The notes beneath the pieces are model-generated. The model saw nothing but the letters and a program-made list of their open reading frames with translations, searched no databases and was not told where the DNA came from. The translations under genes and the position numbers were made by a program. A stretch of 39,201 bases of DNA from a virus: UHGV virus genome UHGV-0121072, one strand, 5' to 3'. Shown here piece after piece: positions 7,337 to 15,172 of this stretch (the first letter of the stretch is position 1; every line of letters begins with the position of its first letter).

Positions 7337-10018
7337 TTAAGCGAATGCATAGTCTGAAGACAAGACGTCTTCGATATTCAGTTTACCTTTCTTCGGAAGC
7401 TCTGGCAGCTTGTCGCGCTGGCTCTCATGAAGCTGGTATTCAAACTGCTCATAGAAGTCAAGCAGCACATCGTTGTCGCGGTAGGTCTCGACCATCGTCT
7501 CACGGACGCCACGGAACAGATACTCAGCGTCAGCCGGGATGGTACCGAAGCTATCGTGAATCACTGCGAATGACATCACGCCATACTTGCGGTGAGTGTG
7601 GACTACAGTCTTGCGTAGGTGGCTACCATCTTGTGAGTGGACGAAGTTCGGGCTAATGCCTGACTCCTGCTTGTGCTTGTCCAGCTCTTTCTTCATACCT
7701 TTATTGACTGTAGGCTGAAGGTTGAATGACCCTAAGAACATCAGGTTCAGACGAGTGGTATCCTTCTTGCGGTATTCCTGCCAGACCGGGAACCCATCAG
7801 GTGTGACCCAGTGTACCGGAAGGCAAGGCTTCAGTATTTCTCCAGTCTTCTTGTCCTTCACTTCAGCAGCCAGCAGCTTGGCAGCACCTTGAAGCCACTT
7901 CATCACGTCAACCGCAGCAACTACGGTCCCGCTCACAGCTTCCCAAATCATCTTAGCCATGAAGCGAGACGCTTGGCTTGGCTCGGTGAACATAGCTCCA
8001 GACCCTGAGTCAATCGCTGGCATCACGATGTCATCGTATACTTGGTCTGCGAATCCGTACTCTTTCGACCCGTAGGCCAGAGTCATGACTGAACGCTTAG
8101 GGACCTTACGTGACATACCGTAGGTCAGCCACTGACGGGCCAGCTCTCGTGTCCCCAGCTTGAGACGCTCGGTAATCTCACCAGTTTTCTTGTCCTCGTG
8201 AGTCACAACCTCGTTATCTGTACCGTTAACCAGCAGGACTTTAAGCTCCTCCTCAATGCGATCAGACACGATGCGGTAGATGTCTTGGACCTTACCGGAT
8301 GGCGTCAGGTTCACTGCATGTCCACCAATGTGGTCACGAAGCATCGCGCTGAAGTGCTGAATCCCAGAGCAGGACCCATCGAACGCTATCGGCAGCGAGC
8401 AGGAGTAAGACAAGCCGTGGTGCATTACGCCAGCATACTCGAAGCAGAACGCAAGGAAGCAGAACGGAGAGTCTAACTTGCCCCACCACTCAATGCTATC
8501 CATCGGTGCCTTAGCAGCAGCCATGATGTTGTCGTGGTTATCTTCCACCCACTTGATGCGCTCCTCGAAGGTGACTTTATCGACACCCGCACAGTTTGCA
8601 CCGTGGACCTTCAGCCATTTGAAACCATCAGCACCAATAGGCTTACCGACTGCCAGAGTAAGGAGACCCTTCTGCATGTCGTTACCCTGAGGGTTGAACA
8701 TCGGTACAGCGTAGACTCGACCGCGCCAGTCCATGTTGTATGGGAACCAGATGGCCTTGAACTGAGAGAACTTGTTCGCTTGGTTAACGATAAAGCTCAG
8801 TGACAATCTGCGTGACTGCCGGGCCTTCTCTCGGCGGTAGATACCGGCAGCAGCTTTCTTCCATGCCTTGAGTTCCTCTTCAGTCTCACCCACATAGTCT
8901 TCAGGCTTCAGTGGCTCCATCTGAGGGATGTCGTCAATAGGCGTGTTGTTCAACTTCTCGACCATGTTCACCACGTCCAGAACCTTCTTGTTCACTTTCC
9001 AAGGTGTATTCTGGATGATGTTGACAGCGTCATAGACTTCAGGCATGTACACGTCTTCGTAACGTGCCACCGCAGACTTAGACCCTAAGCGAATCAATGG
9101 TAACGGTCTGCGACCTTTGGCCCAGTACCCGCCGCCTACGACACCCGTCCACGGCTTAGGTGGAACGACGCAAGGCTGATAGACTGGTGCGATACCCGCA
9201 AGGCTGAATCCACGTTGTGCCATCTTCTTGACCCAGAAGTCTGACAGGTGGACCATCTCAACATCAGCCGCTGCATTGCCAGCACCATAACGCTTAAGCT
9301 CGACCAGTTGTGTGGACTGGATGACAATCTCAAGCATCTTGATGCCAACATGGACCGCCTCGGTCGGACTCCAAGTTCCCCACGCATCTTCCAGTTGACC
9401 CTGCTCCAGCATGGAGGCCTCAACCGCTTGCATGTAGGCTTTCTTGTAGGATGCCCCAGCTCGCTTGTTCAGGTTCTCAGCTATCGCCTTCTTGAAGTGC
9501 TCCTTCTCCTTGTCACGGATGCGACCGAAGCGGATTTCGTCCTCAAGTGTGCGACCTATCGCTGAGGCCATCGGTGTAATCGGTATCCCTTCAGGCTTGA
9601 CCAGCTTGGAGAGGATGACCTTCAGTATAATAACTGCAGCAGACTCGCAAGAGATACGCAGAGAGCGGTCCTTGACGGCCTTCTCTTCAGTGCTCAACAT
9701 GGTGAACGCTACGCTAGGACGAGAGGTTGACAGCTTCCCGTCTGGACCTTCATGCCACTCCCGAACGGCTTGCGCAATCTTAGGGACCAGAGTCTGCATC
9801 AAAGGCTTGGCGACCTGATTGTCTGCCAGTTCCCCGCGCTCTGTCTGGCGCTCAAGGTTCTTGATGAAACGTCGCTCGCCTTCAGTGTATGCCTCATGCT
9901 CAAGCTGAAGCTGCTTGACTGCAAGGTCTTGCCCGTAGTGGTCAGCCAGCAGGTTAAACGGCTCAATGGCGTTCGACACATCAGAGAAGTCGTGTTTGTC
10001 AATAGAGATGACGCTCAT
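7337..10018 (-). CDS. gp1: Single-subunit DNA-dependent RNA polymerase
   Basis: 893 aa; aligns along its length with T7 RNAP (FPYNMDWRGRVYA, DGSCSGIQHFSAMLRD, RSVMTLAYGSKE, HDSFGT, C-terminal ...FAFA). Confidence 0.97.
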   Translation of the reverse strand: MSVISIDKHDFSDVSNAIEPFNLLADHYGQDLAVKQLQLEHEAYTEGERRFIKNLERQTERGELADNQVAKPLMQTLVPKIAQAVREWHEGPDGKLSTSRPSVAFTMLSTEEKAVKDRSLRISCESAAVIILKVILSKLVKPEGIPITPMASAIGRTLEDEIRFGRIRDKEKEHFKKAIAENLNKRAGASYKKAYMQAVEASMLEQGQLEDAWGTWSPTEAVHVGIKMLEIVIQSTQLVELKRYGAGNAAADVEMVHLSDFWVKKMAQRGFSLAGIAPVYQPCVVPPKPWTGVVGGGYWAKGRRPLPLIRLGSKSAVARYEDVYMPEVYDAVNIIQNTPWKVNKKVLDVVNMVEKLNNTPIDDIPQMEPLKPEDYVGETEEELKAWKKAAAGIYRREKARQSRRLSLSFIVNQANKFSQFKAIWFPYNMDWRGRVYAVPMFNPQGNDMQKGLLTLAVGKPIGADGFKWLKVHGANCAGVDKVTFEERIKWVEDNHDNIMAAAKAPMDSIEWWGKLDSPFCFLAFCFEYAGVMHHGLSYSCSLPIAFDGSCSGIQHFSAMLRDHIGGHAVNLTPSGKVQDIYRIVSDRIEEELKVLLVNGTDNEVVTHEDKKTGEITERLKLGTRELARQWLTYGMSRKVPKRSVMTLAYGSKEYGFADQVYDDIVMPAIDSGSGAMFTEPSQASRFMAKMIWEAVSGTVVAAVDVMKWLQGAAKLLAAEVKDKKTGEILKPCLPVHWVTPDGFPVWQEYRKKDTTRLNLMFLGSFNLQPTVNKGMKKELDKHKQESGISPNFVHSQDGSHLRKTVVHTHRKYGVMSFAVIHDSFGTIPADAEYLFRGVRETMVETYRDNDVLLDFYEQFEYQLHESQRDKLPELPKKGKLNIEDVLSSDYAFA

Positions 10019-10087
10019 ACTTAAAGTCCTTGTTATTAGTCTTTCACTTAAAGTCTCTTTGGTCTTTCACTTGGAGTCTTAGACCTT

Positions 10088-10109
10088 GAGTCCTATAGTG
10101 ATAGTTAAG
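10088..10109 (-). promoter_or_regulatory. Phage RNAP promoter (CTTAACTATCACTATAGGAC) about 75 nt upstream of the RNAP gene
   Basis: Consensus copy with TTAAC variant also seen in two other copies; followed by two direct repeats gtctttcactt(a/g)(a/g)agtc in the leader. Confidence 0.6.
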
Positions 10110-10115
10110 TCAGAA

Positions 10116-10442
10116 TCACTTGCATATCAGTTGGTTAGCGTGAAGATGACTGAAGTCACCATGAGTCGTGTGCTTGATGGTTGACCGTTGGTCTATCGCC
10201 GTCCAGCCTGAGACCAGAAGTTTACCATCGTCAGTGATTGGTCGTCCACCATACGCCAGACACATCAGTTCGGACTTATGTCCCTCGGCCCTGAGCCTTG
10301 CTTGCAGTACCCGGTCGCGCTCCTGCTGTTGACGTTCTGAGTGACTTGAGGTCCCGTGACGGTAGCCCGTAGCCAGTGCTGAAAGCAGATTAAGGTCTGC
10401 GTCAAGTGCATGGACCAAGTTGATGCCATAAGATTTACTCAT
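10116..10442 (-). CDS. Hypothetical 108-aa early protein (occupies the slot of T7 protein kinase gp0.7)
   Basis: ORF directly upstream of the gene 1 promoter; start overlaps the stop of the preceding ORF; no kinase motifs. Confidence 0.5.
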   Translation of the reverse strand: MSKSYGINLVHALDADLNLLSALATGYRHGTSSHSERQQQERDRVLQARLRAEGHKSELMCLAYGGRPITDDGKLLVSGWTAIDQRSTIKHTTHGDFSHLHANQLICK

Positions 10443-10639
10443 TACAGTTTGCTCCCAAGAGTTGCTATATCCCAGACGTTCGCTAAGTTGCGCATGAATC
10501 GTCCGTTAGGTTGGCGCACAGTCCAGCGACCCAGACGTACATAGTTGAATTTGTAGACTTTACGCGCTTTGTTGATGTCTCTCACCAGCACGTAGACTAT
10601 AAGTCCATAGCCTATGGCTATCAATAGTGCGATACTCAT
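10442..10639 (-). CDS. Small membrane protein, 65 aa (N-terminal TM helix, basic C-terminus)
   Basis: ATG at 10639 overlaps the stop of the upstream 29-aa ORF (ATGA); hydrophobic segment IALLIAIGYGLIVYVLV. Confidence 0.45.
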   Translation of the reverse strand: MSIALLIAIGYGLIVYVLVRDINKARKVYKFNYVRLGRWTVRQPNGRFMRNLANVWDIATLGSKL

Positions 10640-10725
10640 AGTGATTTCCGTTTAATACAATCGTATATACCATAACCCATCATCCAGATAACTGGCGCTA
10701 GGCATACCCAGTAACCGATGTTCAT
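10636..10725 (-). CDS. Candidate 29-aa hydrophobic peptide
   Basis: ATG at 10725 with AGGAG SD 6 nt upstream; MNIGYWVCLAPVIWMMGYGIYDCIKRKSL; coupled to the next ORF. Confidence 0.25.
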   Translation of the reverse strand: MNIGYWVCLAPVIWMMGYGIYDCIKRKSL

Positions 10726-10751
10726 AGTTAACTCCTATCAATGTAAGTGAT

Positions 10752-10792
10752 AATCTTTGAGGCCACCTATCAGTCAGATGACCTCTCGTCTA
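10752..10792 (-). promoter_or_regulatory. Conserved stem-loop, candidate RNase III site (variant)
   Basis: aatctttgaggccac...atgacct... variant of the stem-loop family. Confidence 0.4.
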
Positions 10793-10798
10793 TCACTC

Positions 10799-11146
10799 CT
10801 ACACTTCCACCTCGATGGTTGTCATCTTGGTCACAGTAAGACCACCAGCAAGCTCAACCGCATAGCGTATCGCCTCCTCTTTGGACTTGAAGTCCTTTCC
10901 CGCAAGGTGGTATATGTCCCCTGTTATTACCTTAGATGGCCTGCGACTTACCGCAATAGCGTTTTCCATGGTAAGCTCACCACGGCTATACTGAGTAAAC
11001 CAGCGCTTCACCGAACTCGTCCCCACCCCGAACTTTTTGGCGGTTTCCGTCACCCTATCTATAACTCCCTCAGGCAGGGAGGTGTAGTAGTTAACAACGT
11101 TGAGTTTAAATGCTACCGAGAATACATTGCGAGTTTTAGCAGTCAT
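10799..11146 (-). CDS. Early protein with IS3/IS911 OrfA-type helix-turn-helix (HTH_Tnp_1-like), 115 aa
   Basis: N-terminus VFSVAFKLNVVNYYTSLPEGVIDRVTETAKKFGVGTSSVKRWFTQYSRG follows the IS3-family OrfA HTH pattern; no transposase catalytic domain follows. Confidence 0.55.
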   Translation of the reverse strand: MTAKTRNVFSVAFKLNVVNYYTSLPEGVIDRVTETAKKFGVGTSSVKRWFTQYSRGELTMENAIAVSRRPSKVITGDIYHLAGKDFKSKEEAIRYAVELAGGLTVTKMTTIEVEV

Positions 11147-11176
11147 TATTCTTTCCTTCTGTGGTTGTCAAGTGGT

Positions 11177-11210
11177 AATCACTCAGGCCACCATGTAGAT
11201 GACCTGTAGT
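11177..11210 (-). promoter_or_regulatory. Conserved stem-loop, candidate RNase III site (variant)
   Basis: aatcactcaggccacc atgtag atgacct variant of the family. Confidence 0.4.
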
Positions 11211-11217
11211 TTAACAC

Positions 11218-11343
11218 TCAGTACCCACCTGTCAGCGTTATGGTCAGACTTTGGTGATTAGCTACGTAGCAAGCACCACGCTTCATCATCTCGTAGCACC
11301 CATTGTAGAACGCCTGTTCACTGCTATAAGTTATCTGGTACAT
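11218..11343 (-). CDS. Candidate 41-aa early protein
   Basis: ATG at 11343 with GAGGA SD, TGA at 11220..11218; MYQITYSSEQAFYNGCYEMMKRGACYVANHQSLTITLTGGY. Confidence 0.3.
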   Translation of the reverse strand: MYQITYSSEQAFYNGCYEMMKRGACYVANHQSLTITLTGGY

Positions 11344-11500
11344 AGTTGCTTGTCCTCAGCGCGTAAGCTGTCGTATAGACGCTTGCGGCCCTCGTAGACC
11401 TCTTTCAGGTGACGCATAGTCGCATCGTGGTTTAACTGCCCGGTCTTGACCATAAGCCTGGCGTTGGTGACGTGGTGCTGGCAGAGACCATAAGTTAACA

Positions 11501-11845
11501 TCACTCGCAGTCCTCCTCGTCGCTCTCTTCAGCCTCAAACCAGACCACATCCGAGCTATCGAGCACGTCATTATATAGCGCCTCATAGATGCGAGCTTGC
11601 AATATACGCGTTACGTCCTTGGTCTCAGGCATCAGCCCAGAGTCTTCGAACTCGTGGTCTATACCATCAGCAGCCATCACCGTGAAGATCTCGTGGTAAT
11701 AGTGCGGAACCTGACTGTCTACGACTTCATGCAGCGCATCATGGTAGTCATCGCCTTCAGCTATTTCGTCGTACTGAATACGCTCGTTAAAGGCCTCAAC
11801 GGTTGCAGTCAGCAGCTCATAGTATGCGTTAGCGTTACGTTCCAT
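11501..11845 (-). CDS. ocr: Ocr (overcome classical restriction) DNA-mimic anti-restriction protein
   Basis: 114 aa; VPHYYHEIFTVMAADGIDHEFEDSGLMPETKDVTRILQARIYE nearly identical to T7 gp0.3; acidic C-terminus. Confidence 0.9.
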   Translation of the reverse strand: MERNANAYYELLTATVEAFNERIQYDEIAEGDDYHDALHEVVDSQVPHYYHEIFTVMAADGIDHEFEDSGLMPETKDVTRILQARIYEALYNDVLDSSDVVWFEAEESDEEDCE

Positions 11846-11876
11846 AGTTATATCCTCTCAGTTGTTAGTGACCATC

Positions 11877-11913
11877 AGTCAGGGCCTTCAGATGTAGACT
11901 CAAAGACCCTGTA
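11877..11913 (-). promoter_or_regulatory. Stem-loop upstream of ocr, candidate RNase III site
   Basis: Minus-sense CAGGGUCUU...AAGGCCCUG 9-bp stem; T7 has an RNase III site before gene 0.3. Confidence 0.4.
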
Positions 11914-13408: not shown

Positions 13409-15172
13409 CTAGTGGAACGTAACGTAGGACCCTAGTCCCAGCTCGTCGTCCGTATCGTGAGTTACCCGGACCCCATTGTCCCAGAACTCAGTGTGGATGG
13501 ACTCGAAGCCTTTCCGTGGGTTCTCCATCTGTTCCTCCAGCCACTCCTCAGTGACTTCACGTTCGCCTTTGTTGGCATCCTTAGCCATCGACTCAACGAA
13601 GAACTGTACACCGATAGCCAGCGCATCAAGTCGGTCATCGTGTGCCAAGGCTCCACGTTCACGAGAGATACGGGTCATCTGGTAGAAGAGAGAGTAGATA
13701 GGGTTACGAACACCATCCTTGTCAGAGGCTGTCTGGTAGTCTTGGACGATAGCAGCAGCGTTAACGATAAGTCGGTGAGACCCCATGATAGGCTCCAGAA
13801 CGTCACAGATGCGGAGTTCTTTCTGACCCTTACTCTTCACTTCAGTTACAGCAGCAGGATGGATACGGGCCGCTACAGGCTTGAATAGCTCAAGGTACAT
13901 ACCATCACCGAAGTTACCCTCAATGACGTATTCGTTGACCTTCCACTTATGACCAATCTTAGCCAGAGCTTCCAGAGTAGAGTCTTCGTATCCACCACGC
14001 ATACCACCAACCTCCATAGCGAAGATGTAGCCGTTGAGCTGGTACAATACCGCATAACCAGTTTCATCCTTACCACGACCACTAGGGTCAATGACCAGAA
14101 TCTTCTGGGTGTATGAGCTGAACGCAGAACCTACAGTCTGATACGTGTGGTACGAGTCACCAATGAGTCCAACGTTAGGAACGTCCTCACGCTTGTTCTG
14201 ATGGTTCGGCAACCATTGGTAGACCATTGGGCTAGACGCTGGGTCTAAGTCCGCTACGATAAGGTCACGGAGCTTCAGAGGGTATTTCTCGGCATCACTC
14301 AGGTTCGGGTTAAGCATGAACTGTAGAGCGAAGCCAGCTTTACCGTAGGACAGCTCACGTTCCTTCAGGTCAGTATCGTCGAATCGAACTTCATCGGTCG
14401 GACGCCAGTAGAAGGCCTCAGGGTCCTCTTCAAGCTCTGCCTGAAGCATAGGAGCCAGACGGTCTCCGTAAGACTGCCAGTCCTTCCTGTCGCGTGGATA
14501 ACGAGCAGGCCAGATAGTAGTGGTGTATCCACGGCCTTCTAGCTCACGATACAAGGTCATCTCGTTCTGAGGAGTACCCAGATAGATGATTGTACCTCCC
14601 GGCTTCAGGATAGCGTCGAACTCTTTCACAAGCTCTGACAGGCGGTCTCTTGCAGCCTGAGTCGCTGAGTTGTTCGGAACCTCAACGTCATCGGCAATCA
14701 GGATGTCAGCACGACTACCAGTCAACTGACCAGTGATACCAACTGACTTAACAGAAGGTGAGTGGTCAGGCTTGGCTGGCCCAACGTCGAAGCTAATAAC
14801 CGCATCTCGCTGTCCCTGCTTAGGTTTGAGTTCCTGAAGCTGAGGCATGAGGTCGATGATTCGCTTGATGAATATGGAGTTAGCATCAGCTCGTTCCTTT
14901 GAGGCAGACACAATCATGAACTTCAAGTCTGGGTTGTTCCATAGTTTCCAGACCACGAATGCACACGTAATGAAGGACTTCCCGATACCACGGAACGCCT
15001 GTAAGATGAAACGCCTGTTGTCCCCAGCCGATAGTTTCTTCGCCATGTCAATCTGACAGCGAGTCGGGACTGGGAGTGACAGAGCTTTCCATAGAACAAA
15101 CAGGAAGAACACGAAGTCTGCCTTCATACGGGCAGTCATTAGCGCCTGACGCGCCACTAAGTCTTTACTCAA
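13409..15172 (-). CDS. gp19: Terminase large subunit (TTG start)
   Basis: 587 aa; [73 protein letters not shown] match T7 gp19. Start codon at 15172..15170 is TTG with AAGGAGG SD 7 nt upstream. Confidence 0.93.

Follow-up and report, generated by a model that had tools for sequence, protein, structure and literature searches.

Three small open reading frames (ORFs) directly upstream of the phage RNA polymerase gene of UHGV-0121072 form a compact unit, with an RNase III-like hairpin upstream and a phage promoter before gene 1 downstream, and this layout is normal for Kayfunavirus, with nothing unusual about it. The DNA analyzed here (39,201 nucleotides, hereafter the window) belongs to a Kayfunavirus, a K1F/SH3-like relative of T7 with its genes on the minus strand, and its early region is about 92% identical to those of Citrobacter phage SH3 and other Kayfunavirus genomes. 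Toward gene 1, the order is the 29-aa, the 65-aa and the 108-aa ORF, followed by the RNA polymerase gene (Table 1). The initial annotation had listed the same three ORFs, and all of them were recovered in place on the minus strand. While this observation is confirmed, the interpretation attached to it, which set the unit in place of a missing protein kinase gene, is only partly supported. Taken as a whole, the locus is probably best explained as a Kayfunavirus early unit that is unrelated to kinase loss and encodes host-acting accessory proteins.

Table 1. Features of the early region and its flank in the window.
Feature	Position	Strand	Basis
Gene 1, T7-type single-subunit RNA polymerase, 893 aa	7337-10018	-	ORF; conserved neighbour of the 29/65/108 unit
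Phage-RNA-polymerase promoter consensus ACTATCACTATAGGA	10091-10105	-	Exact match, between the 108-aa gene and gene 1
108-aa soluble protein, K1F gp0.38 family	10116-10442	-	phrog_7066, E = 1e-44 over residues 25-108
65-aa protein, T3 gene 0.6 / K1F gene 0.6/gp0.37 homologue	10442-10639	-	phrog_2385, E = 4.7e-32
29-aa predicted membrane peptide	10636-10725	-	ATGA coupling to the 65-aa gene; variable slot
Long imperfect RNA hairpin	10745-10798	-	Fold -24.3 kcal/mol, z = -3.8; directly precedes the 29/65/108 unit
115-aa helix-turn-helix (HTH) protein	10799-11146	-	Weak HTH matches: BrkDBD 1.4e-4, HTH_23, HTH_Tnp
Second hairpin copy, upstream flank of the HTH cassette	11170-11219	-	Fold z = -2.5; synteny
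Ocr (gene 0.3), anti-restriction DNA mimic	11501-11845	-	Pfam ocr 3.3e-32; phrog_2568 1.1e-53

Both junctions within the unit had been described as ATGA overlaps. This was found for the 29/65 junction (10639-10636), but the 65/108 junction is a TAATG in which stop and start share a single base, 10442. The 29-aa ORF is preceded by a good Shine-Dalgarno sequence (AGGAG at 10736-10732), and the 108-aa ORF by GGGAG at 10456-10452. Pairwise dN/dS was 0.20 for the 29-aa, 0.22 for the 65-aa and 0.16-0.23 for the 108-aa ORF, which shows purifying selection on all three small ORFs; the RNA polymerase and Ocr gave 0.05 and 0.17, respectively. That the 29-aa ORF, and perhaps the 65-aa ORF too, arose by chance and encodes nothing is barely credible. 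Such short ORFs are common by chance and the 29-aa ORF is unannotated in several GenBank relatives, e.g. SH3, but the two ORFs are intact in 15 and 19 related loci, respectively, with dN/dS of about 0.2, and have a good Shine-Dalgarno sequence and a start/stop overlap; moreover, their hydrophobic character, including that of the 29-aa peptide, is kept across divergent copies and the 65-aa family reaches other genera. The order of the unit also persists in divergent phages, as a ~40-kb SAMase-carrying phage contig with a 37%-identical gp0.38 relative reads 45 aa, 65 aa, 98 aa and RNA polymerase. Judged from these comparisons, the three ORFs are genuine, translationally coupled early-region genes that are conserved across many relatives.

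By synteny with T7 and T3, the unit would belong to the early (class I) region of Kayfunavirus, which host RNA polymerase would transcribe, and would lie in its promoter-distal part. The early coding region starts with the Ocr gene. The two hairpins in Table 1 represent repeat families D2/D3 and are 83% identical; in relatives, the same element lies ahead of each cassette, and ASO2B annotates it as 'terminator'. The copy next to the unit probably serves for RNase III-type processing and marks where a cassette begins or ends. A terminator scan found none, a scan for sigma-70-like promoters gave no enrichment over shuffles, and an Rfam scan of the early region returned no matches. On the other side of the unit, the phage promoter lies inside the 97-nt spacer between the 108-aa gene and gene 1. 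Its consensus has 12 matches in the window against 1.1 expected, and the position before gene 1 is kept in most relatives checked, including K1F, SH3 and EPr2. The polymerase encoded by gene 1 is 98-99% identical to those of SH3 and K1F over its first 300 residues.

The statement that the early region lacks a protein kinase gene was borne out. With T7 gp0.7 and the Kayfunavirus 244-aa kinase as tblastn queries, the best match in the whole window had an E value of ~0.4 (0.41), and the gp0.7 kinase domain (~230 aa, e.g. the KVGFKKEDSGAAY block) has no detectable homology in the window. The accompanying view that the 108-aa ORF stands there instead of the kinase did not survive comparison with relatives. 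Among 27 related loci, which were chosen for carrying gp0.38 (the family of the 108-aa protein), seven hold a 244-aa, kinase-domain-only gp0.7 homologue alongside the unit (L004, L006, L011, L017, L019, L020 and L021), and the Kayfunavirus-type kinase is present in ~44 of the 224 GenBank phages that carry gp0.38, about a fifth. This kinase sits upstream of the unit in its own hairpin-bounded cassette, and gp0.38 is therefore neither a replacement nor a descendant of gp0.7. The variable slot able to hold the kinase corresponds in the window to the 115-aa HTH gene (~17 phage records at ≥80% identity), not to the gp0.38 position; in other Kayfunaviruses, it is empty or contains the short gp0.7-type kinase or both genes. 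Kinase absence is in fact the majority state in Kayfunavirus. The layout is standard for the group: between genes 0.3 and 1, the type phage K1F carries no kinase annotation, and the genes there are named 0.6 and gp0.38.

The map position nevertheless invites comparison with gp0.7. In T7, the gp0.7 gene likewise closes the early region ahead of gene 1 and follows a small membrane ORF and a gene at the 0.6 position. Neither domain of gp0.7 is similar to gp0.38 by sequence or profile. A two-sequence BLASTP comparison of the 108-aa protein with gp0.7 yielded nothing significant, its sole match being a low-complexity one of 22 residues at positions 242-260 of T7 gp0.7 (E = 0.16), and the gp0.38 family alignment compared with that of the gp0.7 C-terminal domain (~130 residues) gave an hhalign probability of 0.6%. 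In newer Pfam, this C-terminal host shut-off domain is PF27024; the Pfam copy scanned here lacks that model, as T7 gp0.7 itself was unmatched. A 'GDF' likeness of gp0.38 to T7 gp0.7 was dropped, being absent from other gp0.7 C-terminal domains. The proposal that the 108-aa protein arose from gp0.7 by truncation or divergence, from either the kinase or the C-terminal domain, could draw on its place just upstream of gene 1 and on the short BLASTP match. By sequence comparison, it is effectively refuted by the hhalign result, by the lack of kinase motifs together with the failure of either kinase type to match the window, and by the bona fide gp0.7 kinase homologue found beside gp0.38 in the same genomes.

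A different relationship, in which the 108-aa protein would match the kinase-independent host-transcription shut-off domain of gp0.7 in function, by analogy and not by homology, seems unlikely, although it agrees with several features of the locus. The layout of the T7/T3 0.7 mRNA is matched (hairpin, small membrane ORF, T3-0.6 homologue, gp0.38, gene 1). The Kayfunavirus kinases, where present, lack the gp0.7 C-terminal domain, since the 244-aa protein aligns only to approximately residues 8-228 of T7 gp0.7. In addition, gp0.38 occurs in every Kayfunavirus-like locus examined, within a set chosen for carrying it. Against this, both the hhalign and the BLASTP comparisons speak for no sequence relationship, and the gp0.7 C-terminal domain is poorly conserved among T7, T3, Pharr and Erwinia phage pEp_SNUABM_12; therefore, map position alone is weak evidence.

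The 108-aa protein itself belongs to a family already represented in databases, where an identical copy exists. Its homologue is labelled gp0.38 in the K1F and EcoDS1 records and falls in the same family (phrog_7066, hypothetical protein), with 76% identity to K1F gp0.38 over residues 25-108; the position directly upstream of gene 1, the conserved core and the C-terminal tail are all as in the window. Homologues form 141 clusters at 90% identity, no precomputed Pfam domain appears among the 120 listed, and the cluster contigs, where large, are phage-sized (~40 kb). Gp0.38 adjoins gene 1 on its upstream side in the window, in the 27 related loci and in the 37%-identical relative, with the exception of the distant member P0133, whose 1.6-kb contig shows a different neighbourhood. 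The family appears to be restricted to Kayfunavirus-like phages. A profile search run exhaustively over 1.84 billion representatives retrieved 14 matches, comprising small gp0.38-family proteins and one 1,594-aa protein, the latter match being taken as compositional, and none of the 14 is of known function.

The description of the 108-aa protein as uncharacterised and free of kinase motifs stands. Neither Pfam nor NCBIfam yielded a family of note for the 108-, 65- or 29-aa protein, a profile search of the 108-aa protein against PDB sequences gave nothing below E = 0.5, and the fold libraries gave no match. Structure matches in BFVD were orthologues only, including 'Gp0.38 [EcoDS1]', and an hhalign comparison of gp0.38 with the 56-aa protein that Przondovirus encodes between its 0.6 homologue and 0.7 gave 1.6%. 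The profile search and structure prediction that the initial annotation had proposed for this protein thus yielded phrog_7066 as the only family, an AlphaFold2 (AF2) model and no homologue of known function.

The 108-aa protein starts with a helix that varies within the family (residues 1-24), continues with a conserved helical core (~33-88) and ends in a C-terminal tail of very high conservation (89-108; HTTxGDFSHLHANxLICK). In the divergent family alignment, four of the six invariant columns fall in the C-terminal stretch 92-100, and the tail is also found on a different N-terminal domain (P0132, phrog_11917). The N-terminal extensions, by contrast, vary freely, with forms of 83, 86, 108, 130 and 139 aa: the window encodes the 108-aa form with a 24-residue N-terminal helix, whereas K1F has a short form (~84 aa), and the 130-139-aa forms of other relatives contain an inserted segment. 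A shallow alignment resulted in an AF2 model with a pLDDT of 50, which rose to 69.6 when more divergent homologues were added (core ~80-87, tail low, pTM 0.45). With moderate confidence, the model suggests a small helical core plus a tail that is itself modelled with low confidence; this tail could instead contribute to an oligomer interface, or be a structured element for which the alignment was too shallow.

Because the protein is basic and helical, and its gene invariably adjoins gene 1 across a spacer with a phage promoter, it might be thought to modulate the phage's own transcription, through the gene 1 polymerase or the downstream promoter, and not that of the host. We consider this very improbable. 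The fold searches detected no DNA-binding or polymerase-binding fold, and the inherited T7-type gene order explains the adjacency equally well. Furthermore, gp0.38 may be dispensable in K1F, as the record NC_007456 has no gene annotated at this position and contains only a truncated match (residues 41-108; longest ATG ORF 59 aa).

The 65-aa protein could be connected to a family outside the genus. It aligns with the T3 gene 0.6 protein, which has the same length (65 aa), as has the K1F homologue; the latter is named 0.6 in the K1F record, and the counterpart in the ASO2B record is gp0.37. Both the T3 and the window protein are encoded in the early region after a small hydrophobic ORF and share an N-terminal transmembrane helix followed by the motifs (V/L)(R/K)D(I/F).K and TVR..NGRF. 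By tblastn, homologues were found in 511 phage records, including Przondovirus and Ningirsuvirus, and those of Pharr and Bas104 match phrog_2385. The 65-aa protein is thus not specific to Kayfunavirus, and is shared by several Studiervirinae genera. T7 gp0.6A (phrog_8393), in contrast, is unrelated to it. Two differences from the T3-type homologues were noted, namely the C-terminal end (…DIATLGSKL in the window, …YIATH in T3-type homologues) and the downstream neighbour: in T3, Przondovirus, Ningirsuvirus and Bas104 the 0.6 homologue is followed by a full-length 0.7 kinase, directly or after one small ORF, while in the window gp0.38 takes this place.

The 29-aa and 65-aa proteins had both been called hydrophobic, which applies to them in part. 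In the 65-aa protein, it holds for the predicted transmembrane helix 1-19 (Kyte-Doolittle 2.48) but not for the basic conserved tail, which contains TVRQPNGRF and shows a lower dN/dS (0.14, compared with 0.22 overall); the overall pI is 11.0. The 29-aa peptide is moderately hydrophobic in the window (1.37), with the best 17-residue window in relatives reaching ~2.3, and Providencia phage EPr2 annotates its counterpart as a transmembrane protein. Its slot upstream of the 65-aa gene is filled by at least three unrelated peptides, the alternative occupants being a 55-aa two-helix protein (phrog_7319) and a 45-aa T7 gp0.5-like protein (phrog_16572), the latter in L026 and L030. T7 gp0.5, a 47-aa hydrophobic early protein of the same PHROG, occupies the same slot, while the 29-aa peptide shows no detectable relationship to it (best PHROG match E = 0.19; the ORF is missed by tblastn with T7 gp0.5).

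Such slot swapping also bears on whether the three products form one membrane complex, in which the small anchors would recruit the 108-aa protein, e.g. for superinfection exclusion or control of genome entry. The ATGA and TAATG coupling suggests co-expression, and the order of small ORF, 65 aa and gp0.38 is kept in the 37%-identical relative. However, stop/start overlaps also join the Ocr and 57-aa genes and the 57-aa and 41-aa genes of the same early region, T3, Przondovirus, Ningirsuvirus and Bas104 have a member of the 65-aa family but no gp0.38, and L008 and L015 have gp0.38 but lack an intact 65-aa gene. Moreover, four loci tolerate an HNH endonuclease gene between those for the 65-aa protein and gp0.38. 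A dedicated complex is improbable on this evidence, and the separate occurrence of the two genes together with the intervening HNH gene points to independence of the three proteins.

We return to the explanation favoured at the outset, of host-acting accessory proteins, which would be made in the first minutes of infection. Most likely, gp0.38 would bind a host protein as a small adaptor or inhibitor, with the helical core presenting a flexible conserved C-terminal peptide, [HY]T[TS]xGDF[ST]HL..., that would fold on binding. The idea of a binding tail is suggested by the invariant tail columns, the low-confidence tail in the AF2 model, the presence of the tail on another domain and the variable N-termini. 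For the T3-gp0.6-like protein and the 29-aa peptide, the inner membrane would be the most likely site of action, with no involvement of gp0.38; the former is predicted to be membrane-anchored with its basic tail in the cytoplasm, and the latter is the positional equivalent of T7 gene 0.5. The proposed host-binding mechanism draws on where the genes lie, how large their products are, how these are conserved and what is generally known of T7 early genes, as neither sequence nor fold searches found a gp0.38 relative of known function or fold. The literature on gp0.38, K1F early genes, gp0.5/0.6 and Kayfunavirus transcriptomics yielded no functional data, and the supplements of the phage accessory-gene screen of Silas et al. 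2023 contained no gp0.38-family signature peptides. A bolder and rather doubtful version would make gp0.38 a new class of early host-takeover or anti-defence effector, whose portable tail docks a host protein and which might supply kinase-independent shut-off of the gp0.7 C-terminal type.

Overall, the 29-, 65- and 108-aa ORFs are ordinary, already-catalogued hypothetical genes, and the importance of the locus is small, being that of a catalogued, uncharacterised early module of K1F-like phages; no long-standing question becomes newly testable through it. What changes is the reading of the region: the kinase slot in Kayfunavirus is a separate cassette that does not coincide with the position of gp0.38, no relationship links gp0.38 to gp0.7, and the 65-aa protein is a T3 gp0.6 homologue. 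As Kayfunaviruses are now being isolated and characterised as candidate therapeutic phages, it is reasonable to screen their conserved early proteins, and above all gp0.38 with its portable tail, for interactions with the host.

The region from 10000 to 11900 of the window (minus strand) shares ~92% identity with Citrobacter phage SH3 and many further genomes of Kayfunavirus, the K1F-like members of the T7 subfamily Studiervirinae. The window holds such a genome in circularly permuted form, with its genes on the minus strand. The features of the early region, in which gene 1 encodes the T7-type RNA polymerase, are collected in the table; the 29-, 65- and 108-aa ORFs lie on the minus strand, exactly at the positions given in the initial annotation. 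The 57-aa ORF next after Ocr looks like a member of the T7 gp0.4 (FtsZ inhibitor) family: tblastn with T7 gp0.4 aligned 41 residues (37% identity, E = 0.006), and an orthologue in a related locus (L030) carries PF26807 (Phage_T7_GP04). In T7, gp0.4 acts on FtsZ (PMC9372555).

Features of the early region and insertions in related IMG/VR genomes (L handles)
Feature	Sequence	Position	Strand	Remark
Terminase	window	13409-15172	-	
Ocr	window	11501-11845	-	Pfam ocr, 3e-32
57-aa gp0.4-like gene	window	11331-11504	-	
41-aa ORF	window	11218-11343	-	
Second hairpin copy	window	11170-11219	-	83% identical to the first; upstream of HTH gene; fold z = -2.5
115-aa helix-turn-helix (HTH) gene	window	10799-11146	-	between 41-aa and 29-aa ORFs
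Imperfect hairpin, ~55 nt	window	10745-10798	-	just upstream of 29-aa ORF; -24.3 kcal/mol, z = -3.8
29-aa ORF	window	10636-10725	-	
65-aa ORF	window	10442-10639	-	
108-aa ORF	window	10116-10442	-	followed by gene 1
Phage promoter ACTATCACTATAGGA	window	10091-10105	-	exact consensus; in 97-nt spacer between gp0.38 stop and gene 1
Gene 1, RNA polymerase	window	7337-10018	-	
Endonuclease_7 insertion	L013	3076-3498		
Endonuclease_7 insertion	L017	3118-3552		
Endonuclease_7 insertion	L019	3076-3498		
Endonuclease_7 insertion	L021	2720-3142		

The 29- and 65-aa ORFs overlap by ATGA (10639-10636), as had been proposed, whereas the second junction described as ATGA is TAATG, a one-base overlap at 10442. 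A Shine-Dalgarno sequence, AGGAG, lies 6 nt upstream of the 29-aa start, and GGGAG lies 9 nt upstream of the 108-aa start. The description of the two small proteins as hydrophobic fits only in part. The 65-aa protein has one clear N-terminal membrane helix (Kyte-Doolittle 2.48, residues 1-19) but its remainder is basic (overall pI 11.0), and the 29-aa peptide is moderately hydrophobic in the window (1.37) and more so in relatives; the record of Providencia phage EPr2 lists its homologue as a transmembrane protein. The 108-aa protein is hydrophilic. We considered whether the small ORFs might be spurious. However, codon-level comparison with up to 26 related loci gave dN/dS of 0.20 (29 aa), 0.22 (65 aa; 0.14 in its tail) and 0.16-0.23 (108 aa), next to values of 0.17 (Ocr) and 0.05 (polymerase), which indicates that all three are real genes under purifying selection and not chance ORFs.

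The 108-aa protein matches phrog_7066 (E = 1e-44), a family named gp0.38 in GenBank and UniProt (K1F, EcoDS1), and has 141 homologous clusters at 90% identity, one of them 100% identical. None of these clusters has a precomputed Pfam domain among the matches listed, those with a source name are all hypothetical, and their contigs, where large, are phage-sized (~40 kb). When 1.84 billion representative proteins were searched exhaustively with the family profile, only 14 matched, and the family is therefore very narrow. The 65-aa protein matches phrog_2385 (E = 5e-32), corresponds to gene 0.6/gp0.37 of K1F and aligns along its length with the 65-aa gene 0.6 protein of T3. With the T3 protein and the aligned homologues from Przondovirus (Pharr), Ningirsuvirus (pEp_SNUABM_12) and T7-like phage Bas104 it shares the N-terminal helix and a TVR..NGRF motif. 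No family matched the 29-aa peptide, which 15 related loci carry intact.

The initial annotation saw no kinase gene in the early region, and the rest of the window encodes none either. Its further claim that the 108-aa gene stands in place of a kinase does not hold, as Kayfunavirus kinases occupy a separate upstream slot alongside gp0.38. In a set of 27 related loci, this variable slot follows the 41-aa gene and precedes the small membrane ORF; some loci have no gene in it, and others have the 115-aa HTH gene that the window carries, a short kinase (7 loci) or both. Enterobacter phage vB_VIPECLMC06, for instance, has a 244-aa 'protein kinase' upstream of the 29/65/108 unit. GenBank phage records hold gp0.38 in ~224 cases, a Kayfunavirus-type kinase in ~44 and the HTH gene in only ~17 (at ≥80% identity). 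K1F has no kinase annotated between 0.3 and 1, and in Kayfunavirus phage B1 a 243-aa kinase precedes hypothetical proteins of 53, 64 and 108 aa and the polymerase (PMC12785254). Together, these gene contents indicate that absence of the kinase is the usual condition in Kayfunavirus and that, where present, it coexists with gp0.38 at another position.

The 108-aa protein is not a truncated or divergent gp0.7 either: BLASTP gave only a 22-residue low-complexity match, and profile-profile comparison of the gp0.38 family with the gp0.7 C-terminal domains by hhalign gave 0.6% probability. The 244-aa kinase aligns with the T7 gp0.7 kinase domain (~31% identity, roughly residues 8-228) but lacks the C-terminal host shut-off domain. 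An alternative, attractive because the Kayfunavirus kinases lack this domain but rather unlikely, is that gp0.38 is an analogue of it.

The assignment to the 0.7 position is right in the sense that gp0.38 is the last early gene before gene 1. The layout mirrors the '0.7 mRNA' of T7 and T3, namely a hairpin, a small membrane ORF (0.5 slot), the T3 0.6 homologue, the last early gene (0.7 slot) and gene 1. A SAMase-carrying phage contig of roughly 40 kb, whose gp0.38 relative is only 37% identical, keeps the order 45 aa (T7 gp0.5-like), 65 aa, 98 aa and polymerase, which points to a deep origin of this order. The two hairpins flank the HTH gene, and in relatives such an element stands in front of each cassette (HTH, kinase, membrane-ORF unit). 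Analogy with the annotated T3 RNase III sites R0.3, R0.5 and R1 and with the established biology of T7 makes them probable RNase III-type processing sites, and they may also be joints at which recombination adds or removes cassettes. The record of phage ASO2B calls these elements terminators, but they have no T-run.

The promoter consensus occurs 12 times in the window, where 1.1 matches would be expected, and the copy before gene 1 is at the same position in most relatives checked, including K1F, SH3 and EPr2. The polymerase gene could therefore be transcribed by its own product. The T7 and T3 records annotate only the E. coli promoter C upstream of gene 1 (T3 also the RNase III site R1). Action of gp0.38 on the phage polymerase or the adjoining promoter was considered as well.

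Comparison of relatives indicates that the parts of the unit are separable. At least three peptides with no relationship to one another alternate in the small-peptide slot, namely the 29-aa type, one of 55 aa with two helices (phrog_7319) and one resembling gp0.5. A deletion fuses the 29- and 65-aa genes in one relative, and another lacks the 65-aa gene. In four IMG/VR Kayfunavirus genomes an Endonuclease_7 gene (HNH-type, PF02945, E = 6e-26; 140-144 aa), presumably a homing endonuclease, lies between the 65-aa and gp0.38 genes. This separability argues against a single membrane complex of the three proteins. The neighbouring 115-aa protein has weak helix-turn-helix or transposase-HTH similarity (BrkDBD, 1.4e-4); Klebsiella, Pectobacterium and T7-like phages have more distant copies, and Dev2 and IMEP24 carry fragments of it fused to further early genes.

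Members of the gp0.38 family (83-139 aa) combine interchangeable N-terminal extensions with a constant core of ~80 residues. The AlphaFold2 model from a more divergent alignment (pLDDT 69.6; ~80-87 over residues 40-90) has helices at 9-25, 33-53, 56-63 and 71-88 and a low-confidence tail at 89-108. Fold searches found no fold relative, and no sequence relative of solved structure was found. Conservation within the family is highest in the tail, TTKGDFSHLHANPLICK, where T92, G95, F97 and L100 are invariant and D96 and H99 nearly so. The tail also occurs on a different, unrelated N-terminal domain of ~50 residues (phrog_11917) in protein P0132 and in Enterobacter phage 02_vB_Eclo_IJM and Salmonella phage CHRF_30001, in the latter just downstream of a 65-aa homologue, suggesting that the tail is a portable functional module. 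A zinc site was rejected, as distant members have not kept the tail's histidines and cysteine.

The most distant relative, P0133 (118 aa; Logan contig SRR27278212_1543, 457-1343), has other neighbours: it overlaps a 176-aa phrog_8679 protein on its upstream side and a 93-aa ORF on its downstream side, and the ORF after these does not encode an RNA polymerase. At the gp0.38 locus the two K1F records may differ from each other. NC_007636 (2214-2465) annotates gp0.38, matching residues 25-108, whereas NC_007456 (2262-2468) annotates nothing, matches residues 41-108 only and has a longest ATG-started ORF of 59 aa. Possible explanations are a genuine disruption, a sequencing difference, or a start codon other than ATG that escaped the ORF scan.

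T7 class I proteins such as Ocr, gp0.4 (on FtsZ) and gp0.7 hit host targets within minutes. By this analogy, gp0.38 would most plausibly be a small host-protein-binding effector, whose helical core would present the conserved peptide, which would fold on binding; for the T3 gp0.6-like 65-aa protein and the small peptide, the site of action would be the inner membrane. We offer this mechanism tentatively, at somewhat less than even chances. Literature searches found no functional study of these proteins, and every family that they match carries the annotation 'hypothetical'.

Among known entities, the nearest are K1F/EcoDS1 gp0.38 for the 108-aa protein, T3 gp0.6 and K1F gp0.37/0.6 for the 65-aa protein and, by position only, T7 gp0.7 and gp0.5. 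The three ORFs are conserved accessory genes of the early region that look translated and belong to a known set of families, an identification we hold with high confidence. The gene set had already been catalogued and is arranged here in its usual way; what the analysis adds is negative or corrective. What remains as a novel reading is that gp0.38 may be an effector of a new kind, with a docking peptide that is portable.
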